Source: Calothrix sp. MO_167.B12 (GTDB lineage Bacteria; Cyanobacteriota; Cyanobacteriia; Cyanobacteriales; Nostocaceae). From it: a stretch of 22,978 nt of DNA. Shown in pieces: positions 496 through 19,715 of the stretch. The notes below the pieces were generated by a model. The model made no database searches and was not told the DNA's origin. It saw only the letters and a list, made by a program, of their open reading frames with translations. The translations under genes were made by a program, and so were the position numbers. The stretch lies in NCBI GenBank assembly GCA_030066045.1, contig JASJCJ010000108.1, positions 1 to 22,978 on the forward strand. The letters run 5' to 3'. Position 1 is the stretch's first letter. The number at the start of each line of letters is the position of its first letter.

Positions 496-1293
496 TTACC
501 CAAAACGTCCAGAGATATAGTCACGGGTGCGTTCGTCCAAAGCTTTACTAAATATTTGGGTGGTAGATCCAAACTCCACCATTTGACCAACTCGACTTTC
601 ATCAGTATTAAAGAAAGCAGTGAAATCAGAAATACGGGCAGCTTGTTGCATATTGTGAGTAACAATCGCAATGGTTAAATTATTTCGTAGAGAATGAATT
701 AGTTGCTCAATTTTAGTAGTAGCAATGGGGTCAAGGGCAGAACAAGGCTCATCCATTAACAGTACCTTGGGCTTAACTGCTAAAGCACGGGCAATACAAA
801 GCCGTTGTTGTTGTCCTCCAGAAAGTCCCAGAGCAGATGTATGCAACTTATCTTTCACTTCATCCCAAAGAGCCGCATTTTTGATGGCAGATTCGACAAT
901 TTCATCAATTTCTGTCCTTGGTCGCCATCCAGATATTCTTACCCCATAGGCAACGTTATCATAAATGCTCATGGGGAATAAATTTGGTTTTTGAAATACC
1001 ATACCTATTTTGCGGCGCAACCGATTTAAATTAACTCGGCGTTCGTATATATTCTGACCAAAAAACTCAACTTTTCCTTCTATTTTGACTTCTGCTTCCA
1101 ATTCACTAATTCGATTCAGGGATTTAATAAAAGTTGATTTACCGCAACCACTAGGACCAATAATAGCTGTAACTTGATTTTTATAGATGTCCATTGACAC
1201 CCCTGCTAATGCTTTAGTTTGACCATAGTAAAAATTGAGATTACTAACTTTAATAGCTGTACTTAGTTGAGTCATAGTGATTGGTTTGTGCAT
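496..1293 (-). CDS. pstB: Phosphate ABC transporter ATP-binding protein PstB
   Basis: Walker [13 protein letters not shown] signature LSGGQQQR, Walker B VLLMDEP, H-loop VTHN, and a PstB-typical C-terminus ([10 protein letters not shown]). It is the last gene of a pstS-pstC-pstA-pstB series on the minus strand. Confidence 0.95.
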
Positions 1294-1328
1294 AGAGCTA
1301 AGTGAAATAAAAAATTGGGTGAGGATGG

Positions 1329-2318
1329 TTATTTACGTTTACTAATCAGAGTACGAGAGAGTAAACTCGTAAACAAAACTAAACAAAGTAAAACTATGGC
1401 AGCAGTCCAAACTAATGCTGTTTTTTCTGGGGATGGTTCATTGTAAAGATTGAAAATTAATACGGACATAGATGCAGTAGGACTTAATAATCCATCTGAC
1501 CAATTCAAGCTAAATAGAGCCGTAAAAATTAGTGGTGCTGTTTCTCCAGCAGCGCGAGCGATCGCTAGTAAAATACCTGTAGTAATTCCTGGTAATGCCG
1601 CAGTTAAGACAATACAAAATGTGGTTTGTAATCGGGTACCACCTAAAGAAGCAGATGCCAAACGTAGGGAATTAGGAATTAGTTTTAAAGCTTCTTCTGT
1701 TGCCAGCACAATTACAGGTAACATAATTACAGCTAAAGCACAGCCACCTGCAAAAGCACTAAATTGTTTAAAGGTGATTACAATAATACCATAAACAAAA
1801 ATACCCACTACAATTGACGGCACACCAGTCAAAATAGTGTTAATAAAACGAACAAATTTGGCAATGTGAGAACCTTGACTAAACTCCGCTAAAAATATTC
1901 CCGTCATTACCCCCACAGGAATACTAATAGCTGAAGCGATCGCTACCATTTTGATAGTACCTAAAATTGCATTGGCAAAGCCATCATCAATGACTGGTAA
2001 CCAAAACATTTCTAGTTTAATTCCAGATAATCCTCTAGTTAAAATTTCCCACACTATTGACAGTAATGGGACTAATGCTACTAGGGATAAAATAAAAGCG
2101 ATCGCGGTCATACTATAATTAAATATTAACCGCTTTCCTTCCAAAGGTTGAAATAATTCTATTGCCGAATCTTCAGATTTATTTCCCGGATTATATTTAC
2201 CATGTTTGGTCATATTTGAACGAGATGCATTATTTTTACTTTTAGCTGGGTATTTTTCTTTTGAATAGCTATAATCAAATGTTATGAATGCTCTATCTTC
2301 ATGATTGTTGTTTGCCAC
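1329..2318 (-). CDS. pstA: Phosphate ABC transporter permease PstA, with a roughly 65-aa hydrophilic N-terminal extension
   Basis: Polytopic membrane protein with an EAA-type permease loop ([14 protein letters not shown]). It sits between pstC and pstB and overlaps the pstC stop by 20 nt, which is typical of translational coupling. Confidence 0.9.
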
Positions 2319-3273
2319 GAAGTAACTGTATAATTAGCACTGCACCAATATTTACTGCCAGGGTTAAAGCAAACAAAATTAGCCCTAAATAAGTTAAAGA
2401 ACCAATGTGTAATGTACTATCTGCTTCTGGAAATTCATTAGCTAATACTGCTGGAATTGAATAGCCTGCTTCGAGTAAGGAAATACTAATCACAGAAGAG
2501 TTACCAATTACCATTGTTACAGCCATAGTTTCCCCTAAAGCTCTACCTAGAGCCAGCATTGCTGCACTCAAAATACCGGAAGCCCCAGCAGGAATAAGAA
2601 CTTTAAAAATAGCTTCCCAACGTGTAGAGCCTAAAGCCATAGAGCCAGTTCTTAATTCTTGAGGAATTACTAACAATACATCACGACTAATTGCGGCCAT
2701 GGTTGGCAAAATCATAATTGCTAAAACTATCCCTGCAACTAACATACTCTGACCAAAAGGTTCAGTACTAAATAAAGGGATGAATTGCAAATGTTGAAAT
2801 AGCCATACTTGTAAAGGATTGAGCCACGGAATTAGAATATAAATTCCCCACAAACCAATAATTACACTGGGAATAGCAGCAATTAGTTCCACTAACAAAG
2901 CAATAGGCGATCTCACCCATCTTGGTAAAAAATCTTCCGTAGTGACTAAAGCTACTGCTAAACCAATTGGTACTGCCAATATTAAAGCGAGGGTACTACT
3001 TACTAAGGTTCCATAGATATAGGGCAAAGCACCAAAAATATCACCAGAAACATCCCATTCTTGACTCCACAAAAACCCCAAACCAAACTTAGCGATTGAT
3101 GGATAAGCTTGTTGAAAAATGACCCAACTCATCCAAAACAGGACGGCTACAGTCAATAAAGCAAAACCATGAACTAACCAATTGAATCCTGTTTCTAGAA
3201 GGAAATTTATTCCCTTGGTATCAGTGATATCAATATTTCCAGAATTTACAACTTGTCTCGATGGATTTGTCAT
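2299..3273 (-). CDS. pstC: Phosphate ABC transporter permease PstC
   Basis: Polytopic membrane protein with a permease loop (ALGRALGETMAVTMV). Position is downstream of pstS and upstream of pstA. Confidence 0.9.
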   Translation of the reverse strand: MTNPSRQVVNSGNIDITDTKGINFLLETGFNWLVHGFALLTVAVLFWMSWVIFQQAYPSIAKFGLGFLWSQEWDVSGDIFGALPYIYGTLVSSTLALILAVPIGLAVALVTTEDFLPRWVRSPIALLVELIAAIPSVIIGLWGIYILIPWLNPLQVWLFQHLQFIPLFSTEPFGQSMLVAGIVLAIMILPTMAAISRDVLLVIPQELRTGSMALGSTRWEAIFKVLIPAGASGILSAAMLALGRALGETMAVTMVIGNSSVISISLLEAGYSIPAVLANEFPEADSTLHIGSLTYLGLILFALTLAVNIGAVLIIQLLRGKQQS

Positions 3274-3274
3274 T

Positions 3275-3309
3275 TCAGTTATCAGTTATCAGCTATCAGT
3301 TATCAGTTT
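3275..3309. repeat. Heptamer short tandem repeat, (TCAGTTA)x5 with two variant units
   Basis: Read directly: tcagtta tcagtta tcagcta tcagtta tcagttt. It starts 2 nt from the pstC start codon (3271-3273). Confidence 0.9.
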
Positions 3310-3481
3310 CCCCATCCATAAATCAAGACAGAATTAAGAATACAGTTGGGGGAAAATTTTTAAATTCTCAATTCTAATTTGGGGGCTTAATACCGATTAC
3401 TGTTTAGTCATATACAAATCTGTGTTAACTATGGAAAAAAGTAGGATAGGCAAAAGCTATCCCACCGGGCGAGGAGAATAA

Positions 3482-3590
3482 CACATATCTTGCACCTTCT
3501 CAGTAATGGTAAGGTGGGCAATGCCCACCCTACGATAAAATAAGGTTTTCAGACTTTGATTTGATCAATAATCTTGTGGTGCAAGATGTG
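3482..3590. mobile_element. 109-bp MITE-like element, copy 1 of a 4-member family in this window
   Basis: Terminal inverted repeats CACATATCTTGCACC ... GGTGCAAGATGTG and an internal palindrome GGTGGGCAATGCCCACC. Near-identical 109-bp copies lie at 5132-5240 and 16632-16740. This copy is in the pstS-pstC intergenic spacer. Confidence 0.8.
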
Positions 3591-3613
3591 AAATAACGAA
3601 ATTTATAAATTAA

Positions 3614-4654
3614 TTACTTGACATTGCTTTTAACTGTCTGTATTACCTGACTCGCCACGCTACTAGGAATCCTAGTGTAGTTAAGCTGACCATTATAATT
3701 TTGACCTTTGGTCAGAACCCACTCCACCCATTTTTTCACCGCTTGGGCTTTAGCTGGACTGGAGTATTGTTTGTAAACTAACATCCAAGTTAGACCGACA
3801 ATGGGGTATCCTTGTGTCGAATCCCCGACAAAAACTCGGTAGTTACTGGGGAAACTGACGCTGGATAAAGCCTGATTGGCAGCCTGTAAAGAAGGAGCTA
3901 CAAATTGTCCTGATTTGTTCTGTACTTGGGCTGATTTGAGATTATTAACTGCGGCATATTCGTAGTTAACATAACCAATAGAACCAGGAGTGCGTTTCAC
4001 CAAAGCCGCTACACCTGCATTTCCTTTACCCTTAAGACTCTTTGTTAGCCATTTTGGTTTTTTACTAGTACCAATTCTGCCTTTAAAGTAGGGATTGATA
4101 ACACTCAAATGATTAGTAAAAATGAAGCTAGTACCGCTACCATCAGCACGCACTACGGTTTTAATTGCTGCATTGGGTAGATTGACCCCAGGATTATCTT
4201 TTTTAATTTTTGGGTCGTTCCATTTAGTAATTTGACCGGAAAAAATCCCTGGTAATGTGGTACGAGATAGTTTGAGATTACTTACACCAGGGAGATTATA
4301 AACCACGGAAACAGCACCTCCCGCAGTCGGAACAAGAATTACACCTCCCCTGACCTTAGCCATCTCTGCATCAGTCATTGCCGCATCACTAGCACCAAAA
4401 TCCACAGTACCAGCAATAGTTTGTCTGATGCCACCACTGCTACCAATCCCTTGATAATTAATTTTCAAGTTTGGATGCGTTTTTCTCACTTCCTGAGCAT
4501 ATTTTACATACAGTGGTTGAGGGAAAGTTGCTCCTGCACCATTTACGGTTTGCCCTTGGGCAATTGATGTAAATAAGGGTAAAAAGGCAATAGATGTTGT
4601 TATTGCTGAAGTCGTAAAGGCGCGATTCATAATGGTGAAAAAAGCCATATTCAC
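3614..4654 (-). CDS. pstS: Phosphate ABC transporter substrate-binding protein PstS
   Basis: N-terminal signal-like hydrophobic segment followed by the PstS-type motifs GAGATFPQPLY, GIGSSGGI and DGSGTSFIFT. It is the first gene of the pst operon. Confidence 0.9.
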   Translation of the reverse strand: MNMAFFTIMNRAFTTSAITTSIAFLPLFTSIAQGQTVNGAGATFPQPLYVKYAQEVRKTHPNLKINYQGIGSSGGIRQTIAGTVDFGASDAAMTDAEMAKVRGGVILVPTAGGAVSVVYNLPGVSNLKLSRTTLPGIFSGQITKWNDPKIKKDNPGVNLPNAAIKTVVRADGSGTSFIFTNHLSVINPYFKGRIGTSKKPKWLTKSLKGKGNAGVAALVKRTPGSIGYVNYEYAAVNNLKSAQVQNKSGQFVAPSLQAANQALSSVSFPSNYRVFVGDSTQGYPIVGLTWMLVYKQYSSPAKAQAVKKWVEWVLTKGQNYNGQLNYTRIPSSVASQVIQTVKSNVK

Positions 4655-6560: not shown

Positions 6561-7079
6561 ATGACTAAAGGGATTGTATTTTTATCCACCCCACACACAG
6601 GTTCCCATTTGGCTAATTTAATCGATAATATTGGTGTTTTAGCAAGACCCACTGTCAATGTTGAAGAATTAAAAGCCCATGCCCCTGAGTTACGTAGTCT
6701 CAATGAATGGTATCGGCAAAATGTTGAGAGTTTAGTAATTGATACCAAAGTTTTTTATGAAACTCAGCCTATACATGGAATTTTGGTTGTGGATGAGGAT
6801 AGTGCTAACCCAGGGATTAAGGATGTAAAGCCTGTTGCAGTGCCATTTGATCACAATTCTATTGCCAAGCCTCAAAAAAATGACTTAGTTTATCTCGGTG
6901 TCAAAAAGTTTGTTATCCAACACTTACCTTCCCAACTACAATTACCTCCTGGTGCATCAAATGCTGTACAACAACCAATGGCAGGGGATAATACAAGGAT
7001 AGCAGACACAGTTGGAAACATTGGGGTTGTAAACCAGAACAGTTCTATTCAGAATCAGAATATTCATCAAACCTTTTGA
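6561..7079 (+). CDS. C-terminal remnant of an alpha/beta-hydrolase-like (putative serine esterase) effector domain, probably a fragment of a disrupted STAND gene
   Basis: It begins with the motif GIVFLSTPHTGS only 3 residues after the Met. A TAA at 6537-6539 closes the frame immediately upstream, so I see no GxSxG nucleophile region. It ends at a TGA (7077-7079) that is in frame with the NB-ARC ORF. Confidence 0.55.
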   Translation: MTKGIVFLSTPHTGSHLANLIDNIGVLARPTVNVEELKAHAPELRSLNEWYRQNVESLVIDTKVFYETQPIHGILVVDEDSANPGIKDVKPVAVPFDHNSIAKPQKNDLVYLGVKKFVIQHLPSQLQLPPGASNAVQQPMAGDNTRIADTVGNIGVVNQNSSIQNQNIHQTF

Positions 7080-7172: not shown

Positions 7173-8990
7173 ATGAAACTGCTGCATGAGAAGCTACAAC
7201 AATCTAATGCAGTGGCAATTTCTGCTATTGCTGGTATGGGGGGAGTAGGTAAGACGGAATTAGCAACCCAGTATGCAAGACAACATGAAGCTGATTATCC
7301 AGGGGGGATTTGCTGGTTAAATGCCAGAGATACTAATCTGGCAGCAGAGATTATCCAGTTTTATCAGTTTTATGTGGATAATCAAGGAGAAATTCCCCAA
7401 CAGATAGGAGAAAGACAGCTCACGGTATCTGAACAAGCTATCTGGTGTTGGGACAATTGGCAACCTGAGGAAGGATTGATATTAGTTGTTTGGGATGATG
7501 TCACGGATTTAGGCAGTTGTCAGCAACTACTACCAACAAATAACCGTTTTCGTCTGCTGATTACTACCAGACTACGCAATCTCGATCCCAATATTGTGGA
7601 AGAGATACCCTTAGATATATTGTCCCCCGAGAAATCTTTAGAACTACTGGTAGTGTTGGTAGGGAAAAAGCGAGTAGAGAAGGAAAGAGAAACAGCAGCA
7701 GAATTATGTAAGTGGTTGGGATACCTGCCATTGGGGTTAGAATTAGTCGGGCGATATCTAGCAGATGACCCGGATTTATCATTGTCAGAAATGTTAGCAA
7801 GTCTGGAACAACAGCGATTGAATGATGAAGCACTAGAATATTCATCGGAGAGTTGGACTACAGCACAGCGAGGGGTTAAAGCTGCATTTGAATTAAGTTG
7901 GCAGAAGCTAGATGCCATGACACAAGGGGTGGCGGAGTTATTAAGTTTGTTTGCTCCAGATGTAATTCCTTGGGGTTTGGTTACATCTATCTGTCAGAGA
8001 TTGGATGGGAATAAAGCTGATATTAACAAAGCCAAAAAACAACTATATAAGCATTATTTAATACAGCGATTAGAAGATAGAGAAAGTAGTTATAAAATTC
8101 ATCCTCTAATCCGCCAATTCCTACAAGCAAAGTTAGAGTTAACACCATCAGCCGATGAGTTGAAGCAGGCTTTCGCTGCGGCAATGGTAGCGGTTGAAAA
8201 AAGAATTCCTGAAAATCCTGTCATGACAGAGATTGAATCGGTTAAAGATGCTATACCCCATCTGATAGAGGTAGCAGAACATCTGATAGCAGTGGTGATT
8301 GATGAAGATTTATATTGGGTGTTTGAGGGGTTAAGCAGATTTTATGAAGGACAAGGATTATATGCATTGGCAGAGCCTTGGCGTAAGCAGTGCGTATCAG
8401 TGCTACAAACTCGCTTGAAAGAAGAAAATCCCTATATCGCTACCAGTTACAACAATCTGGCAGGACTCTACTCAGACCAAGGACGTTACACAGAAGCCGA
8501 ACCTCTGTATCAAAAAGCTTTATCACTAAGGCAACAGTTCCTAGGAGAGAAACATCCCGATGTTGCCACATCTTACAATTGTCTGGCAGGACTCTACTCT
8601 GAACAAGGACGGTACAGCGAAGCCGAACTCCTGTATCAAAAAGCTTTATCACTCAGGCAACGGTTCCTGGGAGAAGAACATCCTGATATTGCCACATCTT
8701 ACAACTGTCTGGCTTTTCTCTATTATTCCCAAGGACGATACACAGAAGCAGAACCTCTGTATCAAAAAGCTTTATCACTCAGGCAACAGTTCCTGGGAGA
8801 AGAACATCCTGATGTCGCTACCAGTTACAACAATCTGGCTCTTCTCTACTACTCCCAAGGACGGTATAGTGAAGTGGAACCCCTGTATCAAAAAGCATTG
8901 ATGATTTTTGAGCAACGGTTAGGGACAGAACACCCTAATACTGTTACTGTTCGCAATAATCTGGAATTTCTTCGTAGCAATATGGACTGA
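7173..8990 (+). CDS. STAND NTPase with an NB-ARC domain and C-terminal TPR repeats
   Basis: P-loop GMGGVGKTELA, Walker B LILVVWDDV and GLPLA-like GYLPLGLELVG, followed by four 42-aa TPR-pair units (ATSYNNLAGLY..GRY.EAEPLYQKAL). The conserved pre-P-loop motif FVGREKE lies upstream of the first ATG, in frame. Confidence 0.9.
   Translation: MKLLHEKLQQSNAVAISAIAGMGGVGKTELATQYARQHEADYPGGICWLNARDTNLAAEIIQFYQFYVDNQGEIPQQIGERQLTVSEQAIWCWDNWQPEEGLILVVWDDVTDLGSCQQLLPTNNRFRLLITTRLRNLDPNIVEEIPLDILSPEKSLELLVVLVGKKRVEKERETAAELCKWLGYLPLGLELVGRYLADDPDLSLSEMLASLEQQRLNDEALEYSSESWTTAQRGVKAAFELSWQKLDAMTQGVAELLSLFAPDVIPWGLVTSICQRLDGNKADINKAKKQLYKHYLIQRLEDRESSYKIHPLIRQFLQAKLELTPSADELKQAFAAAMVAVEKRIPENPVMTEIESVKDAIPHLIEVAEHLIAVVIDEDLYWVFEGLSRFYEGQGLYALAEPWRKQCVSVLQTRLKEENPYIATSYNNLAGLYSDQGRYTEAEPLYQKALSLRQQFLGEKHPDVATSYNCLAGLYSEQGRYSEAELLYQKALSLRQRFLGEEHPDIATSYNCLAFLYYSQGRYTEAEPLYQKALSLRQQFLGEEHPDVATSYNNLALLYYSQGRYSEVEPLYQKALMIFEQRLGTEHPNTVTVRNNLEFLRSNMD
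8439..8942 (+). repeat. Four tandem 126-bp (42-codon) repeats encoding the TPR array
   Basis: Units at 8439-8564, 8565-8690, 8691-8816 and 8817-8942. The first three are near-identical at DNA level and the fourth is more diverged. They generate the spurious out-of-frame ORFs 8390-8602, 8440-8652 and 8560-8901. Confidence 0.9.
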
Positions 8991-9223: not shown

Positions 9224-11380
9224 CTAGGGACTCAAAAAATACAAATGATCATCTTCTAAACAGCGTAATTCTTCCGGGGTACCTGTTCGCTTCACCTGAC
9301 CATCTTCCAATAATACAACCCAGTCAGCACGATTATTTACCTGGGGACGATGACTAATTAATATCGTAGTTTTACCGAGACGATTGTGTAATAATTGATT
9401 TAAAAATTCCGCTTCACTTGCTGGATCTAATCCTGCCGTAGACTCATCTAAAATCAAAATGGGTGGATCATTGATAATAGCACGAGCGATCGCTAGTCTT
9501 TGCTTTTGTCCTCCAGAAAGGTTAGCACCAAATTCTCCCAAAACTGTTTGATACTGTTCTGGTAGTCGTTCTATAAATTCATCGGCTTGGGTAACTTGGC
9601 AAGTTTCCATAACCTCTTCTAAGCTGACATCATACCCCAAGCTAAAGTTTTCCATAATCGAACGGCTCCAAAAGTGCGCTTCTTGGGGTACGAGAACAAT
9701 TTGTTGACGCAAACAATCCAGAGGTATTTGCGAATGTTCCTCATCTCCAAAATATATATTTCCATGTTCCAGAGGATACAAACCGGCAATTAATTTTGCT
9801 AGGGTACTTTTACCACAACCAGACCTACCTACCAAAGCGGTAACTTTACCTCCAGGGATGATGAGGGAGAAATCTTGCAGTAAGTGTTCTCTACCAGGAT
9901 AATGAAAGTCTAATCCATCGCAGATTATATCAGTGCGTTGCCTAATGGTAGGATATTGATTTGGTTGTTGCTGCTGATTTTCCGGGGGAAATGTTAATAC
10001 CTCCTGTAATCGAGATAAAGCTGTTTTGGTACTGGCGAATTCATCCACAAAATCAATCACAGTATCCAGTAAACTCACTATATTATTATTCAAGCTGACA
10101 AAAGCTATTAATTGACCAATGGTTAATTCTTGACTAAAAACTAAACCACTACCAATCCACAACAAGCCTACTCCACCAATATCAGAAACTAAACCGGAGA
10201 ATTGTTTGTTAATAATTTCAATGTGAATCGTTGTTAATGCTAATTTGGTAATTCTGGTGAATCTACTTTGTAATTCTTGCCAGAAATAAGGTGCGGCGGT
10301 AATTGTTTTCATAGTTAATGCACCCTTAAATGTCTCTACTAGTACTCCCTGGGTTTCAGCCTCTAGAACCATCAGTTCGCGGGTTTTCTGTTGCAGTTTG
10401 GGAATGAAAACAACTGTAGATAAGGTCATTAACCCAGCAATAAATATAGCAACTATGGTTAACTTCCAGCTATAAAATAACATTAATACTAAACAAACCA
10501 GTGCAATCAATAACCGAATGGGTAAATTGATAATAGCTTGGGAAATTAACTTATTAATTTCTTCAATATCTGTCAGACGGCTAACTATTTCCCCACTCTG
10601 CCGAGATTCATAGTAACTTAGGGGTAAGTGTAAAATTTGTCGCCCAAACTCGAACATCAAATTTAACTGAAAGTGCTGGGCAAAATGAGCAATGAGAACA
10701 TTCTCAACTAACCCTAAACCACGGGTAAAAATATACATTGCTACCACTGCTAACACTACCCCACTGAGAAAGTCTTTATCTCCTCTAACTAAGACATCAT
10801 CAGTGAGAATTTGCAGGAAAAAAGGATAAATTAAGGATAAAGCACCAATGACAAAGGCACATAACAAACCTTCTAGTAATATACCTTGGTAATTTAAGAT
10901 ATATTGCCAAAATTTCTCCCAAGAGTTCCACCCACTACCAGAATGAGACTGACTTGATTGTACAAGCGATCGCTGTTTATTTGGTTTGAGTAATAATAAA
11001 ACTCCATCTTCCCAACTATCAACTAAATCCTCGTAAGAAATATACCTAATACCTACAGCCGGATCGCCAATTACATATTTTTTACCACGTTTTCCATATA
11101 AAACTACCCAGTGACAGCCTTGCCAGTGGATAATTGCTGGTAGTAGCTTATCTGTCAAATGGGGAATTGCATTCGGTGCCACTTTCCCTGATTCAGCATG
11201 AAAACCTAAAGCCTCAGTTCCTTGTCGTAAACCTAATAATGTAGTACCTTTTTTCCCTGTATTTATTGCTTCTCGAATGTGGTTAATGGCAAAATTATGT
11301 CCATAATATTTAGCAATAGAAGCAACACAAGCAGCTCCACAGTCCTCCTCACTTGACTGTTTCACTAATTTATATTTCAT
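9224..11380 (-). CDS. Peptidase C39 domain-containing ABC transporter (double-glycine peptide processing and export, bacteriocin-exporter/HetC-like class)
   Basis: The N-terminal C39 domain has an intact Gln8, Cys14 (EEDCGAACV), His90 (GCHWVVL) and Asp106 (IGDPA). A six-helix membrane domain follows. The C-terminal NBD has Walker A GRSGCGKST, signature LSGGQKQR, Walker B ILILDE and H-loop SHR. Confidence 0.95.
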   Translation of the reverse strand: MKYKLVKQSSEEDCGAACVASIAKYYGHNFAINHIREAINTGKKGTTLLGLRQGTEALGFHAESGKVAPNAIPHLTDKLLPAIIHWQGCHWVVLYGKRGKKYVIGDPAVGIRYISYEDLVDSWEDGVLLLLKPNKQRSLVQSSQSHSGSGWNSWEKFWQYILNYQGILLEGLLCAFVIGALSLIYPFFLQILTDDVLVRGDKDFLSGVVLAVVAMYIFTRGLGLVENVLIAHFAQHFQLNLMFEFGRQILHLPLSYYESRQSGEIVSRLTDIEEINKLISQAIINLPIRLLIALVCLVLMLFYSWKLTIVAIFIAGLMTLSTVVFIPKLQQKTRELMVLEAETQGVLVETFKGALTMKTITAAPYFWQELQSRFTRITKLALTTIHIEIINKQFSGLVSDIGGVGLLWIGSGLVFSQELTIGQLIAFVSLNNNIVSLLDTVIDFVDEFASTKTALSRLQEVLTFPPENQQQQPNQYPTIRQRTDIICDGLDFHYPGREHLLQDFSLIIPGGKVTALVGRSGCGKSTLAKLIAGLYPLEHGNIYFGDEEHSQIPLDCLRQQIVLVPQEAHFWSRSIMENFSLGYDVSLEEVMETCQVTQADEFIERLPEQYQTVLGEFGANLSGGQKQRLAIARAIINDPPILILDESTAGLDPASEAEFLNQLLHNRLGKTTILISHRPQVNNRADWVVLLEDGQVKRTGTPEELRCLEDDHLYFLSP

Positions 11381-11571
11381 TATCAGTGTAAATCCTTTTC
11401 GATAGCAAAACTAATTGTTCAAGTGCAATAGAATCGAAAAAATAGGGCTGTTAACACCGATAATTTATCAATGTTAAAAACCCTAAATCAAATTCAAACA
11501 ATCCAAATTAGCTCGTGGTTATAAAGATTGAGATATATGGGAAATTGAAAAGCTGATCTAGTAGTCCTTTC

Positions 11572-11599
11572 AAAATCCAAAATCTAAAATCCAAAATGG
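11572..11599. repeat. Heptamer short tandem repeat (AAAATCC/AAAATCT)x4
   Basis: Read directly: aaaatcc aaaatct aaaatcc aaaatgg. The complementary GGATTTT motif also occurs at about 15543-15558 and 22511-22524. Confidence 0.85.
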
Positions 11600-11655
11600 T
11601 ATAACCACTAATGCTTAAATTGATAATCTATAAAGTTATCAACTTAGTCTAATCA

Positions 11656-11841
11656 TTAATAACCATAGTGACCACGACGACAGCCATATCCGTATCTACG
11701 ACCATAGCCATATCTATATCTACGACCATAGCCATATCTATATCTACGACCATAGCCATAACCATGACCACCTGCGATCGCAGATTCTTCTTCTGCTGAT
11801 AATTTTGTCAAAATGTTTTCTTCAGTATGAAATTCAACCAT
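11656..11841 (-). CDS. Double-glycine-leader secreted peptide precursor: 61 aa, made of a 25-aa leader and a 36-aa Gly/Tyr/Arg repeat core
   Basis: Sequence is MVEFHTEENILTKLSAEEESAIAGG|HGYGYGRRYRYGYGRRYRYGYGRRYGYGCRRGHYGY. The leader matches the class-II/ComC-type pattern: Leu at -15 and -12, Glu at -8, Ile at -4, Gly-Gly at -2/-1. A consensus SD (AAGGAG) lies 8 nt upstream of this ATG. The gene is directly upstream of, and co-oriented with, the C39 ABC exporter. The track ORF starts 16 codons earlier (11889), where I see no SD. Confidence 0.8.
   Translation of the reverse strand: MVEFHTEENILTKLSAEEESAIAGGHGYGYGRRYRYGYGRRYRYGYGRRYGYGCRRGHYGY
11674..11769 (-). repeat. 24-nt tandem repeat (octad GYGRRYRY) inside the precursor core
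   Basis: Two perfect 24-mers acgaccatagccatatctatatct lie at 11698-11721 and 11722-11745. They are flanked by a copy with 4 mismatches (11674-11697) and a partial copy starting at 11746. Confidence 0.9.
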
Positions 11842-11849
11842 TTTGTCCG

Positions 11850-11855
11850 CTCCTT
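11850..11855 (-). promoter_or_regulatory. Shine-Dalgarno sequence of the precursor gene
   Basis: The minus strand reads TAATAAAGGAGCGGACAAAATG, giving AAGGAG with an 8-nt spacer to the ATG at 11841. Confidence 0.7.
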
Positions 11856-12510
11856 TATTAATTATATACAGCTTGTTTGTCAATTCCATAATTCACAAGC
11901 TAACCGTATATTTATTAGATATTTTCTTCGCTAATTTATCAACCGTAAATAATTAAAACTCATGTTTTAGCAATAACATTGTTTGCTTGTTTACATATTA
12001 TTTAAATACCATAATTCAGTGTTGATGCTATTTGTTAATATACCCTGATATTATTAATTTGACATCCAGAATATAGTATTAAGTCCAATTAAAATAATAT
12101 GGCTCGTAAATCACGGTTGATGCCGAATAATTGAGAATTTGGCTGCATAGCCCATATATAGAACCATGAAAACTATAGTTTATAAGGGATATAGACTTGT
12201 TTGATTTATTCAATTCCAGTGGCTATTCTATTTTATATCTGTGGCATAATGGAAAATATAATTACTACACAACAGAAATAAAATTAGGACATAATACTAG
12301 CTGTAATATAATTAACTTCACACATAAATAATCAGTTGGCATATCTAAATATATTTTAAAAAACCTGAAAATTAGTATTGCCACTTAAAGATATTTGGCA
12401 AACAATTAAAGATATATAATAAGTGCAGTGTACACCATTTTACCTGTCTATGAATGTGTAGTATTGACGATATATTTCGGATGACTCATATGAGCTGGTT
12501 ATAATTGCCA

Positions 12511-13980: not shown

Positions 13981-14469
13981 TCAATTCGCTAATTTCCGTT
14001 GCATTATTTGTCTGGCGATTTCATAATCTTCATTAGTCAAATAACAAAAATGATAATAACTCGCTAAATAAAAATTGCAGTTAACTTTTTGATAACAGTC
14101 AGCTACAGCCAAAAAACCATATCTTGCACCCCATTCATCTGTAAACCAATCTTTGTAAAAAGAATCGTGTAAATATAGCGTTAGCGTATTTTCATCTGCA
14201 CTGGGAATTAGACGAATTAATTCAATATCAGGATGATGGGAACGGCTAACTGGTAAAAGAACATCAAAGCCCTGAAAATTGATAAACTCTGCTAGATCAT
14301 CTTCAGTCTTCTGATAATATGAGGGCGGTTCTTCTGGTAAAGCAATAAAATGTCCCCAATTCATCCAAAATTCATGCTTGGCATCAAATCCAGGGTCAAT
14401 ATCTAATCTCCACTTATCTTCTTGAGAAAGGTCATCAATCACTTCTTTTGGTAACTCTGCTAACTTCAT
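13981..14469 (-). CDS. Hypothetical acidic cytoplasmic protein (162 aa)
   Basis: Uninterrupted ORF with no signal peptide or TM segment. Asp+Glu clearly outnumber Lys+Arg. I recognise no motif. Confidence 0.6.
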   Translation of the reverse strand: MKLAELPKEVIDDLSQEDKWRLDIDPGFDAKHEFWMNWGHFIALPEEPPSYYQKTEDDLAEFINFQGFDVLLPVSRSHHPDIELIRLIPSADENTLTLYLHDSFYKDWFTDEWGARYGFLAVADCYQKVNCNFYLASYYHFCYLTNEDYEIARQIMQRKLAN

Positions 14470-14718: not shown

Positions 14719-14790
14719 AGCCGATGGCGGGATTTGAACCCGCGACCGCTCGATTACGAATCGAGTGCTCTACCACTGAGCCACATCGGC
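14719..14790 (-). tRNA. tRNA-Thr (anticodon CGU)
   Basis: The reverse complement folds as a cloverleaf. Acceptor GCCGATG/CATCGGC, D-arm GCTC-AGTGGTA-GAGC, anticodon stem CTCGA/TCGAG with loop TTCGTAA (anticodon CGT), and T-arm GCGGG-TTCAAAT-CCCGC. CCA is not encoded. Confidence 0.9.
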
Positions 14791-14824: not shown

Positions 14825-15097
14825 ATGGTACAGCCAAATTCTCCAAATCGCACCTCCGGAAAATTCACATCGGCACAATATAATCGCCTCAAAGCAGAAG
14901 CAGTATCACCTTATCGGGGTTTGCGAAAGTTTATATATCTGACCTTTGGTGCTTCCGGTGGCATTGGTGCATTCATTTTTGGTTTGCAGGCGTTGGCAGG
15001 ACGAGATGTTGGTAATGCTTTGCCTAATTTAGCAATTCAAGTAGGATTGATTGCACTGATGGTATTTTTCTGGCGTTGGGATCGGTCAAACAAGTAA
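14825..15097 (+). CDS. Small conserved membrane protein, DUF3493-like
   Basis: 90 aa with the motif YNRLKAEAVSPYRGLRKFIY followed by two hydrophobic helices. From memory this matches the cyanobacterial/plastid DUF3493 pattern. The family assignment is unverified. Confidence 0.65.
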   Translation: MVQPNSPNRTSGKFTSAQYNRLKAEAVSPYRGLRKFIYLTFGASGGIGAFIFGLQALAGRDVGNALPNLAIQVGLIALMVFFWRWDRSNK

Positions 15098-17240: not shown

Positions 17241-19715
17241 ATGGGTACTGTTACTCTTAGATTAAAGCATATACTTTTTCTGACTTCAGCAGTTGTTATG
17301 CTTCCTGACACAGTTTTTAGCCAGGATAATCAAAAAGCATCAATTGGAGAATTTAGCAAATCAGAATCATCATCAAATCCCTATTCAGTTAATACACCTG
17401 ACTCTATATCTGTCTCCATTCCCGAGCCGGAATCTTTTCAGGATTTATCAGAGTTGGGAGGTTATTCCCAGAATCAGAAGACTTTATTAGTTCAGCAGAC
17501 AAGAGTAACGGACTTAGGCTCTGAGAATAGCGATAAACAGCCTTGTACTCCCGTAAATATTGGAGATGTAGAGTTTCCGAAGCTGGTAGATTTAACCTCT
17601 AATAAAATTAATCAAAAACCTTGTGTTCCCACTAATATCGGACAACCAGAATTTTCTAGTAGAAGTTTACACAAACAAACTGGAGTTGCAGAACTAGAGA
17701 AACAGCAAATATCCACAAAGTCTGATGATTCCAGAAATTTTCCTTTGGTGGCGAAACTAGATAAAAAACCAGCAGTTATAAAAGATAAAGAAAAACCCTC
17801 AGGCGATCCAAAATATATCGATCCACCCCATATAGTTCCAAATAAAAAAGTACATCCTTTGACAACACAATTAATACTTAATGACCAAGTTATTAATCAT
17901 TTAACAACAGGTGAGATTTTTGGTGCTGTTAGTTTTGGTGATGATCGTAATACTAATTTTAATGTTAATGGAATTCTGAAGATAGATGGTGAAATTGAAA
18001 AAAGTGTGAGCAGGGAAAATATCCTTCTGAGGAAGCAAACAGGTCGTTATATACAGTTGCAAACAGTAAATAGAAATAGGAAAGTGGAAGTTAGTACTAA
18101 ACAACCACAAACTTTGACAGGTATAGATGTTCAGTTAAGTTTGATTGCTTCCTGTATTGAAGATCCAGATAACCTCTGTACTTTTACTCCTAGTATTTTT
18201 ACTGATGAAAATTTTTTCGACCCTGCATCTCTACAACCAACATCCTTTTTGCAGCCTTCTAAATTTGGTGAGATAGTAACTCCAGAATCATTTGCTGCTA
18301 TCCAAGAACCTGGTTTCCAATCTGGAGCTGAAGGACAAGAAATTGGTGTAAATTTATCTTTTCCTAATACTGGTTCTTCATTTGGAAATACTCAATCTGA
18401 TAGAGCTTTTGTAACTAGGGAAGAAACTATTAAAAATACACCTACGGCATTTTATTCTACAGTGAGACAGGTTTTTAAAGCCAATGATAGAAAAGCTGTC
18501 GTTGGTCGTACAGTACGTGGTTTTGGATTTATATTAAATGATGACAACTTTTTACTGAACTCTGGCTTACAACTTGCTCATATTTTTTTACCTAATGCTG
18601 AGCCTCAGATTAAACCTGGGGTAAAGCCTGCTAATAGAAATATTAATCGTAATTTATTTTTTGCTGTTAACAATGTGCGTCAACCAATCAATAGTAAAGT
18701 CATTTATCATGCTGGTCTTGGATCAGCAAAAACTCCAACACAAAAGGTTAAAAATAGTAATCAAATTCCTGCTGCTAGATTTAACAGTATCTGGTTTGGC
18801 CTTTCTCCAATCAAAAAAATTAAGCTTTCTGGTAAATCTCGTTATGAAATTATAGGTGATCCTCGAATTATCGCTGCAGGTGGTTCAGAAGGTGCAGCCG
18901 AATTTGACAATAATGTAATCTCAGTAATAGACGATCAAGTTTTTTCCAATGCCACTCTAGATAATATTTACAACCAAGTTTATGTCACAGGATTGCAACG
19001 AGATGCTAATTTTGTCAGCTCTAGTAGTTTCCAAGAGGTAACAAATTATTATCCACATATTAGTTTTAGCGGCAATATTACCGATAGCCAAGATATTTTT
19101 AGATACTATGGAGGCTTAATTACTTCAGAACAAATCAAAGCATATCTTGGTGTAGATTTTACGAGAAATACACGCAATGCTTGGAGCTATTCATTAGGAG
19201 GAATAGCATATACCAACCCCGATAGAGATTATTATAGTAAAATACAGGGTAGTATTTCCAAAAGAATCAACCTGAGCAAGAATTCTTTACTGTTACTTTC
19301 TACTGGATTTAATTATGCTTTCGATGGTAATACGAAAGTAAATGGTGTAAATATTAGTAATTCTGCTAGTTCAGTTAGGCTAGGGGCAACAGTTAAATTT
19401 GGCTCAGTCTCTCTGGGATTGTTTAATTATTTTGGAGATATATTACCAAATTCCGTTGATAGTTATTTATTAGCTAATGTAGGAATTAGATTTAGTAATA
19501 ATTTTCAAGTATCGGCATATTATAAACCCATTGATGAGAGTCGCAGTACTTCTCGTTATGGAGCTAGTGCCAGTTTAAGATTAGGCAAAATAAAAAATCA
19601 TATTTTTTCAATTTCCTGGGCTAATAATGAATATCAATTTGGAACCGATGCTGAGGGTAATCAATTGGATATAAGTAATAATGCATTTACTATTTTATTC
19701 AAATCAGCTTTTTAG
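17241..19715 (+). CDS. Large secreted protein, putative outer-membrane beta-barrel protein (family not recognised)
   Basis: N-terminal signal-like segment (LKHILFLTSAVVMLPDTVFSQ). The C-terminal third is rich in alternating hydrophobic/polar beta-strand patterns and ends in an aromatic residue (...FTILFKSAF), typical of BAM substrates. Confidence 0.7.
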   Translation: MGTVTLRLKHILFLTSAVVMLPDTVFSQDNQKASIGEFSKSESSSNPYSVNTPDSISVSIPEPESFQDLSELGGYSQNQKTLLVQQTRVTDLGSENSDKQPCTPVNIGDVEFPKLVDLTSNKINQKPCVPTNIGQPEFSSRSLHKQTGVAELEKQQISTKSDDSRNFPLVAKLDKKPAVIKDKEKPSGDPKYIDPPHIVPNKKVHPLTTQLILNDQVINHLTTGEIFGAVSFGDDRNTNFNVNGILKIDGEIEKSVSRENILLRKQTGRYIQLQTVNRNRKVEVSTKQPQTLTGIDVQLSLIASCIEDPDNLCTFTPSIFTDENFFDPASLQPTSFLQPSKFGEIVTPESFAAIQEPGFQSGAEGQEIGVNLSFPNTGSSFGNTQSDRAFVTREETIKNTPTAFYSTVRQVFKANDRKAVVGRTVRGFGFILNDDNFLLNSGLQLAHIFLPNAEPQIKPGVKPANRNINRNLFFAVNNVRQPINSKVIYHAGLGSAKTPTQKVKNSNQIPAARFNSIWFGLSPIKKIKLSGKSRYEIIGDPRIIAAGGSEGAAEFDNNVISVIDDQVFSNATLDNIYNQVYVTGLQRDANFVSSSSFQEVTNYYPHISFSGNITDSQDIFRYYGGLITSEQIKAYLGVDFTRNTRNAWSYSLGGIAYTNPDRDYYSKIQGSISKRINLSKNSLLLLSTGFNYAFDGNTKVNGVNISNSASSVRLGATVKFGSVSLGLFNYFGDILPNSVDSYLLANVGIRFSNNFQVSAYYKPIDESRSTSRYGASASLRLGKIKNHIFSISWANNEYQFGTDAEGNQLDISNNAFTILFKSAF

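Follow-up and report, generated by a model that had tools for sequence, protein, structure and literature searches.

Does a cyanobacterial stretch of alternating tyrosine, glycine and arginine codons belong to a real peptide and, if so, was the alternation selected or did it arise from the DNA beneath it? The stretch lies in 22,978 nucleotides (nt) of contig JASJCJ010000108.1 from Calothrix sp. MO_167.B12 (assembly GCA_030066045.1), which we analysed as a whole and refer to as the window. A sequence-only reading had proposed that the 36 codons concerned encode an amphipathic beta-strand with a ladder of tyrosines on one face. We find that the segment is a genuine peptide core, sitting after a cleavable double-glycine (GG) leader in a small precursor, and that its strict alternation is mostly a by-product of a recent triplication of a 24-nt unit, with no family-wide constraint. 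Our best reading of the locus, drawn from sequence and gene content and put forward tentatively, is that the cell exports a disordered, polycationic "sticker" peptide without modifying it, and that this peptide most likely serves as a bacteriocin-like antimicrobial.

A double-glycine precursor and its export cassette

The precursor and the genes around it comprise the following features.

11656 to 11889, minus strand: open reading frame (ORF) of 77 amino acids, from the ORF list and its translation; the last 36 codons are the core
11656 to 11841, minus strand: precursor gene, 61 amino acids plus stop, MVEFHTEENILTKLSAEEESAIAGG followed by HGYGYGRRYRYGYGRRYRYGYGRRYGYGCRRGHYGY
11767 to 11841, minus strand: double-glycine leader, 25 residues, MVEFHTEENILTKLSAEEESAIAGG, the conserved part of the family
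11659 to 11766, minus strand: precursor core, 36 residues, HGYGYGRRYRYGYGRRYRYGYGRRYGYGCRRGHYGY, from the ORF translation
11850 to 11855, minus strand: Shine-Dalgarno-like AAGGAG, read from the sequence, 8 nt 5' of the ATG at 11839 to 11841
9224 to 11380, minus strand: peptidase-containing ATP-binding cassette (ABC) exporter (PCAT), 718 amino acids, Pfam PF03412, PF00664 and PF00005
12505 to 13824, plus strand, divergent from the precursor: HlyD-family membrane fusion protein, Pfam HlyD_3, Biotin_lipoyl_2 and HlyD_D23

Because the upstream ATG of the 77-amino-acid ORF reads ATA in the close relative L007, we take the second ATG (11839 to 11841) as the true start, and an AGGAG is kept at the position of the Shine-Dalgarno-like sequence in five related loci. 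The resulting 61-residue precursor has the same sequence as the hypothetical protein P0001 from the metagenome-assembled genome (MAG) of Calothrix sp. MO_167.B12, and had no Pfam or NCBIfam match at E <= 0.01; the NHLP and Nif11 leader families, neither of whose profiles matched in these two collections, were rejected for it. Its leader has the form of known GG leaders, which are about 15 to 30 residues long, end in Gly-Gly/Ala/Ser and carry the consensus LSxxELxxIxGG (PMC3140520). We observed L-15, L-12, S-11, E-8, I-4, G-2 and G-1 at the leader end, LTKLSAEEESAIAGG, with the hydrophobic positions at -4, -12 and -15, and the sole departure from the consensus is a Glu in place of a hydrophobic residue at -7. 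Residues T6, E7, E8, N9, K13, L14, S15, E17-19, I22 and G24 are invariant in nine sequences, and the family leader reads, nearly invariantly, TEENxLxKLSxEEESxIxGG. A regular-expression scan of all six frames found no second GG-leader ORF in the window, the precursor being the only one.

The core, HGYGYGRRYRYGYGRRYRYGYGRRYGYGCRRGHYGY, agrees with the earlier description in every number and coordinate. Numbered from His1, it carries Tyr at positions 3, 5, 9, 11, 13, 17, 19, 21, 25 and 27, all odd, with two further Tyr at 34 and 36; Gly or Arg fills each of the sixteen even positions between 2 and 32, both included (GGGRRGGRRGGRGGRG), and the odd, tyrosine-bearing face has Arg at 7, 15, 23 and 31. 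With 10 Arg, 2 His, a single Cys at 29, zero acidic residues and no hydrophobic aliphatic residue anywhere, the 36-mer has a net charge of +10, a mass of ~4543 Da, an isoelectric point (pI) of 10.3 and 31% Gly. When composition was preserved in 20,000 shuffles, none (0/20,000) reached the run of 16 same-parity Gly/Arg positions, and the aromatic parity bias of 10/2 gave p = 0.012. The alternation is real and lies beyond what composition would yield by chance.

Downstream of the precursor, on the same strand, PCAT combines an N-terminal C39 peptidase domain (PF03412 at 1.6e-33) with an ABC membrane domain and an ABC ATPase, and it matches the NCBIfam models bacteriocin_ABC and NHLM_micro_ABC1, both under their curated cut-offs. 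Cys14 (in DCG) and His90 (in CHWVV) align with the DCG and QHYYV motifs of the ComA peptidase domain, whose Cys and His we take to be the catalytic residues; on this alignment, PCAT appears to keep the C39 catalytic Cys/His pair. The divergent gene matches TIGR01843 at 1e-45, again under the curated cut-off. This arrangement, an adaptor gene reading away from a precursor that is followed by PCAT, is repeated in every related locus with enough flanking DNA, while genes outside the three-gene cassette vary between loci. A membrane-fusion or HlyD-type gene occupies the same position in L001, L007, L014 and L017; at that position L011 has a gene of 568 amino acids without a Pfam match. The gap between precursor and PCAT is just 188 nt in L001.

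No modification enzyme is conserved beside the precursor across the related loci, so the product would be a plain 36-mer. Since we found no radical-SAM, tyrosinase or peroxidase gene near the precursor, we rejected a PQQ- or mycofactocin-type cofactor precursor with a C-terminal Tyr and also 3,4-dihydroxyphenylalanine (Dopa) chemistry. Three neighbouring genes were considered as cassette members and discarded: a 44-amino-acid ORF at 12079 to 12213, as an immunity or second-peptide gene, loses its start codon in L007, and neither a 162-amino-acid ORF at 13981 to 14469, as a modification enzyme, nor the NB-ARC/TPR protein of the window is syntenic with the cassette in other loci.

The peptide has, so far as sequence can tell, the attributes of a PCAT-exported GG peptide, namely the leader, a C39 exporter and an HlyD partner. 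The conserved leader of the 61-residue precursor would be recognised by the C39 peptidase domain of the adjacent PCAT, the precursor would be cut after Gly25, and the core would leave the cell by way of the HlyD adaptor and of a TolC-type channel whose gene lies elsewhere. Given this gene set, we consider recognition, cleavage and export by PCAT/HlyD to be very probable.

Among described systems, the cassette is of the "group III" type of cyanobacterial bacteriocin cluster (Wang, Fewer & Sivonen 2011, PMC3140520). It shares with that group a short-type C39-ABC exporter, HlyD, a small GG-leader precursor with a conserved leader and a variable core, and the lack of a second ABC protein, LanM or SurA. 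It differs from the surveyed precursors in its leader, which matches neither NHLP nor Nif11, and in a core made almost solely of Tyr, Arg and Gly and strongly cationic; Gly, Cys, Ser and Thr abound in the surveyed cores, and the NHLP and Nif11 precursors are mostly negatively charged (PMC3140520). There is also a likeness to the class II microcins of Gram-negative bacteria, unmodified, Gly-rich peptides of less than 10 kDa with a GG signal, secreted by a PCAT, a membrane fusion protein and TolC (PMC12219008, PMC10233263). The 4543 Da core lies within their size range, and no dedicated modification enzyme accompanies it, but an immunity gene stands next to the microcins and none was found here, the aromatic low complexity at +10 is unlike characterised microcins, and the present host is a cyanobacterium. 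What is new is an unannotated, very narrow GG-peptide family with cationic-aromatic low-complexity cores; the export cassette itself is ordinary.

A gene for a DUF6887 protein of 65 to 69 amino acids was seen in L014 (6150 to 6347), L017 (11505 to 11702), L018 (5385 to 5582) and L007 (12897 to 13106), on the opposite strand downstream of PCAT and, in three loci, directly after it. It does not occur in the window.

Relatives of the peptide and its proposed role

We looked for relatives in 5.8 billion proteins with two word-seeded searches, in 1.84 billion cluster representatives with a full profile search, and by scanning 185,579 species genomes (GTDB) as well as metagenomes, and obtained ~14 distinct peptides in all. 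The profile search of representatives added three members and the metagenome scan one locus, and the GTDB scan added one organism name, Calothrix rhizosoleniae SC01, which encodes P0004 and whose peptide recurs on ENA and Logan metagenome contigs with sample codes that we take to be those of open-ocean surveys. A protein search with the core alone matched the peptide itself and its nearest relative, and nothing else. Named sources of members are Calothrix sp. MO_* MAGs, one Nostocaceae MAG and SC01, an external symbiont attached to Chaetoceros diatoms (PMC3667715). Judged from the members found, the family is restricted to marine heterocystous (Calothrix-type) cyanobacteria. In 15 billion proteins it amounts to roughly twelve sequence clusters, with mature peptides built from just three or four residue types, and at 27 to 45 residues these are short enough for synthesis.

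Behind the conserved leader stand cores that are hypervariable yet always of low complexity. Nine are of a Gly/Tyr/Arg (G/Y/R) type, with net charges of +7 to +10, 23 to 37% Gly and 30 to 40% aromatic residues; three are of a Gly/His/Tyr type (net 0, pI ~7.3); one consists of Trp, Arg, Gly and His; and one is Tyr-rich with two Cys. In the P0011 core, RWGGWRHRRWGGWRGRRRWW, Trp replaces Tyr, and Arg and Gly are kept. Such a Trp- and Arg-rich composition is classic among antimicrobial peptides. All cores of the G/Y/R type (9/9) have one Cys or more, and eight of them have exactly one, at varying positions; the C-terminal residue is aromatic in nearly all family members. L017, from Calothrix sp. 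MO_167.B42, has two precursors with the same leader in tandem before PCAT (8001 to 8159 and 8707 to 8880), an Arg-type FGRRYRRRYGCGYRRGYRGGYRGGYGY and a His-type GYHGYYGHPKYRGHYGYHEHHEHYGHHYYPYY of net charge 0, which may form a two-component system. A His-type paralogue carries GYHGHYGHGHYGHGHYGHGHH, and the His-type cores of L023 (57 to 239) and P0010 consist of three to four tandem GHGHY units over a 15-nt DNA repeat, differing from each other by exactly one repeat unit with the reading frame preserved.

The DNA repeat unit differs from core to core: that of the window measures 24 nt, L001 and L017 share a length of 12 nt, L023 has a unit of 15 nt, and the second L017 precursor has one of 27 nt. 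Across members the repeat periods are 4, 5, 8 and 9 residues. Because each core has its own tandem repeat, and close relatives differ in the copy number or rearrangement of their repeats, we conclude that the cores evolve by slippage. The property that is conserved is composition: aromatic, cationic and Gly residues. This composition, together with the lone Cys and the near-universal aromatic end of the G/Y/R group, looks selected when the family sequences are compared. The Tyr/Arg/Gly polycationic make-up stressed in the sequence-only reading is thus kept by the family and agrees, at the level of composition, with its ideas of polyanion or membrane binding and of Tyr-Arg stickers. The "sticker" Tyr and Arg and "spacer" Gly of FUS-type domains form a grammar comparable with the present core.

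The suggestion that Cys29 supports a disulfide-linked dimer also gains from the family, given how regularly the Cys recurs in it. Since a single Cys has no partner within its own chain, the simplest reading is an extracellular disulfide dimer, and such a dimer probably forms outside the cell. In oxidising seawater, the lone Cys would link two chains into a species of ~9.1 kDa (~9084 Da) with a charge of +20.

In the mode of action that we propose, the product would be an intrinsically disordered Tyr/Arg/Gly peptide of charge +10, as predicted by modelling, and selection would act on its composition, that is, on Gly-spaced aromatic and cationic residues and, in G/Y/R-type cores, on the lone Cys. 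Arg and Tyr would bind anionic cell envelopes multivalently, and the peptide would serve as a broad bacteriocin-like antimicrobial against competitors or epibionts, much like the residue-biased "extended" antimicrobial peptides. We place this role first because of the canonical machinery, the hypervariable cores behind a fixed leader, the strongly cationic-aromatic peptides and the one Trp/Arg version, and we give the envelope-binding action itself somewhat less than an even chance. Several points weigh against an antimicrobial role. The ionic strength of seawater weakens purely electrostatic peptide action, and the neutral His-type paralogues (net 0, pI ~7.3) are a poor fit to a cationic antimicrobial. 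Validated class II microcins have an adjacent immunity gene (PMC12219008), and the flanking intergenic DNA of the window, L007, L017 and L011 contains no conserved ORF for an immunity protein or small membrane protein. The same export machinery secretes the non-toxic cyanobacterial biofilm proteins EbfG/PteB (PMC4997328). Lastly, no direct activity test of the nematode Gly/Tyr peptides had been reported by 2019 (PMC6780910).

Those nematode peptides, the NLP peptides and caenacins, are basic, Gly- and Tyr-rich, low-complexity, secreted and linked to defence (PMC6780910, PMC2453101). They differ in being eukaryotic, in having a Sec signal peptide and in their YGGYG/YGGWG motif, which is absent from the window core; the bacterial peptide has a GG leader and the motifs GYGYG and YGRRY. 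The likeness is convergence at most, in keeping with the earlier judgement that resemblance to other Gly/Tyr peptides reflects convergence, not homology. If the peptide is antimicrobial, it would be a bacterial example, active in seawater, of residue-biased cationic-aromatic peptides otherwise known from animals and plants.

A close rival, which we hold to be possible but doubtful, makes the product an extracellular adhesive, matrix or coacervate peptide that condenses alone at high salt, or with anionic sheath polysaccharide or extracellular DNA. The His-type paralogues would condense above their pI, and such condensates would fasten the filament to a surface or diatom host, or scaffold a biofilm as EbfG does. 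The hosts are marine filaments that live attached; the members found sit in marine Calothrix-type genomes, including SC01 on the outside of its Chaetoceros host (PMC3667715), and the missing conserved immunity gene is easily accommodated. The composition matches that of the mussel protein mfp-3, which is 5-7 kDa in size and highly polymorphic, with 25-29% Gly, ~20% or more Dopa plus Tyr and up to 26% cationic residues (PMC5132118). The His-type paralogues, as tandem GHGHY pentapeptides with a pI of ~7.3, share the motif class of the squid-beak GHGxY peptides, of which four tandem GHGLY repeats suffice for phase separation (PMC6884462); the window core, being of the Arg type and not the His type, has none of the at least four tandem GHGxY units in question. 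On composition, which is the basis of our comparison, the mussel and squid systems and the present family are all small, polymorphic, secreted marine peptides rich in Gly, Tyr and cationic residues (PMC5132118, PMC6884462). PCAT-exported GG-motif peptides also enable cyanobacterial biofilms and form amyloid (PMC4997328, PMC9981879). The EbfG1-4/PteB system of Synechococcus elongatus resembles the present one, as far as its published description goes, in its small cyanobacterial GG-motif proteins, its C39-peptidase transporter and its extracellular action; however, the EbfG amyloid hot spots are hydrophobic (A-Phi-N-I-G/S), and the present core has no aliphatic hydrophobics.

The argument for adhesion is one of compositional resemblance, and other observations count against it. 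None of the cassettes contains a tyrosinase or peroxidase for Dopa or dityrosine chemistry, in which they differ from the mussel and squid systems. At a charge of +10, the 36-mer should not readily self-associate except at high salt or with a polyanion. Moreover, the very few copies in 15 billion proteins indicate that the peptide is not a general Calothrix adhesion device. The two roles need not compete: a microcin can also scaffold biofilm (PMC13188072), and by analogy antimicrobial and matrix functions could coexist in one peptide. A more specific proposal, to which we give still less weight, is that marine Calothrix-type cyanobacteria secrete "sticker-and-spacer" peptides via a bacteriocin-type exporter, a Cys-dimerised Arg/Tyr/Gly type and a pH-switchable Gly/His/Tyr type. 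At seawater salinity these peptides would undergo phase separation or adsorb, and would prime surfaces or act as an underwater glue in attachment to substrates or diatom hosts. Were this so, bacteria would have arrived by convergence at a counterpart of mussel mfp-3 and of the squid-beak GHGxY peptides. An adhesive or phase-separating function would tie bacteriocin-type secretion to extracellular condensate or glue chemistry, and could bear on the attachment of epiphytic nitrogen-fixing cyanobacteria to diatoms.

The residue alternation and less probable explanations

The repeat beneath the core is a single feature.

11674 to 11760, no strand: tandem repeat, 24-nt unit, 3.6 copies, 93% matches (Tandem Repeats Finder)

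Each 24-nt unit encodes the eight residues YGYGRRYR and is the source of the period-2 pattern. We regard it as improbable that the alternation was itself selected for an amphipathic beta-strand, one face of which would present a tyrosine ladder and which would act as a membrane-bound strand or an amyloid-like stack. The pattern tracks the tandem repeat, and because the DNA unit is tandemly repeated, the three YGYGRRYR copies are not independent observations. When we collapsed the repeat to one copy, a Gly/Arg run of nine was still significant (p = 0.002), a point in favour of a ladder, but the aromatic parity bias lost significance (p = 0.36). Among random 8-mers of the YGYGRRYR composition, 15% have all Tyr on one parity. 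In the closest relative, L007, the repeat region carries a rearrangement and an indel, and the leader DNA is nearly identical.

The homologues divide on the same question, and the expectation that they would keep the odd/even pattern holds in part. A significant aromatic parity bias is present in 5/14 cores, in two clades. The first comprises P0001 and P0002, its nearest relative, in which 13/14 aromatic residues stand on one parity. The second (P0005-7) has another period, of four residues, and all or nearly all of its aromatics share a parity (p = 0.002-0.012). The other 9/14 cores lack the bias: P0003, P0004, P0008 and P0009 tolerate one-residue shifts in the form of YY or WY doublets, and repeat units of five or nine residues flip the parity.

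An AlphaFold2 run with the nine-sequence family alignment gave a mean pLDDT (predicted local distance difference test score) of 49, a confidence too low to base a fold search on. The core lay at ~40-50, and a helix at leader residues 16-26 was the only secondary structure, with no strand. This result is consistent with a core that is disordered as a monomer and compatible with induced beta structure on a surface or in fibrils. A Gly content of 31%, adjacent Arg-Arg pairs and a charge of +10 should likewise disfavour a stable strand or self-stacking unless a polyanion is present. Between the 24-nt triplication that underlies the alternation and the strandless, low-confidence model of the core, the selected amphipathic strand of the sequence-only reading is not supported. 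The peptide family shows instead that tandem-repeat slippage can yield seemingly "designed" residue periodicities, and the paired Arg- and His-type precursors, the conserved Cys and the family composition are more interesting than the period-2 pattern.

Very unlikely, in our estimation, is a secreted signalling peptide, a pheromone or quorum signal processed by PCAT like ComC and other Gram-positive GG peptides. PCATs do have signalling peptides among their cargoes, besides toxins (PMC7018657, PMC6363468), the strongly conserved upstream region suggests tight regulation, and the lack of an immunity gene is also in its favour. On the other hand, none of the loci has a linked receptor gene, be it for a sensor kinase, a response regulator or anything else; cores of low complexity that shift by slippage would make poor specific ligands; and known pheromones have neither such a high charge nor so repetitive a sequence. 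That the ORF is no gene at all, arising by chance over a simple DNA repeat with shadow ORFs on both strands and no protein family match, is effectively refuted by a leader, an AGGAG site and a position between HlyD and PCAT that are conserved across loci with differing cores, and by a frame that survives the change in repeat number between P0010 and L023.

Flanking elements and the rest of the window

Conserved DNA also lies upstream of the precursor.

11936 to 12103, minus strand, between the precursor and hlyD: conserved upstream blocks, one at 11936 to 11950 (ATTTACGGTTGATAA) and one of ~60 nt at 12043 to 12103

These non-coding blocks are near-invariant in five Calothrix-type loci with differing cores, and ATTTACGGTTGATAA is retained even in a Nostocaceae locus; they may be a promoter or regulator site. 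The block at 12043 to 12103 holds an imperfect palindrome, AATATC-AGGG-(G/T)ATATT. A search of the upstream region with Rfam found no family, only sub-threshold microRNA noise, and a promoter and terminator scan stayed at background level.

On the other side of the precursor, 10 nt past its stop on the minus strand, we noted an AT-only hairpin, UAAGUUGAUAACU...AUUAUCAAUUUA, at 11616 to 11646, which could act as an attenuator of read-through into the PCAT gene; its fold, at z = -1.7, falls short of significance. The heptamer CAAAATC occurs in 3.9 copies at 11571 to 11597, a little way downstream of the precursor. This repeat is conserved in L007 and is like the short heptamer repeats, also in tandem, that heterocystous cyanobacteria typically carry.

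Beyond the cassette and these elements, the window holds unrelated features, among them the following.

496 to 4654, minus strand: complete phosphate ABC uptake operon, pstS, pstC, pstA and pstB (Pfam domains)
6561 to 7079, plus strand: ORF of 172 amino acids without a family match, preceding the NB-ARC gene
7173 to 8990, plus strand: NB-ARC (STAND) NTPase with TPR_10/TPR_12 (family matches)
14719 to 14790, minus strand: tRNA-Thr, anticodon CGT, adjoining the DUF3493 gene
14825 to 15097: DUF3493 (LPA1/Rep27-like) gene
17241 to 19715, plus strand: ORF of 824 amino acids with no Pfam/NCBIfam match, a signal-peptide-like N-terminus and the ending ...ILFKSAF

An acyltransferase gene is also present in the window. 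The 824-amino-acid protein may be an uncharacterised outer-membrane beta-barrel protein.

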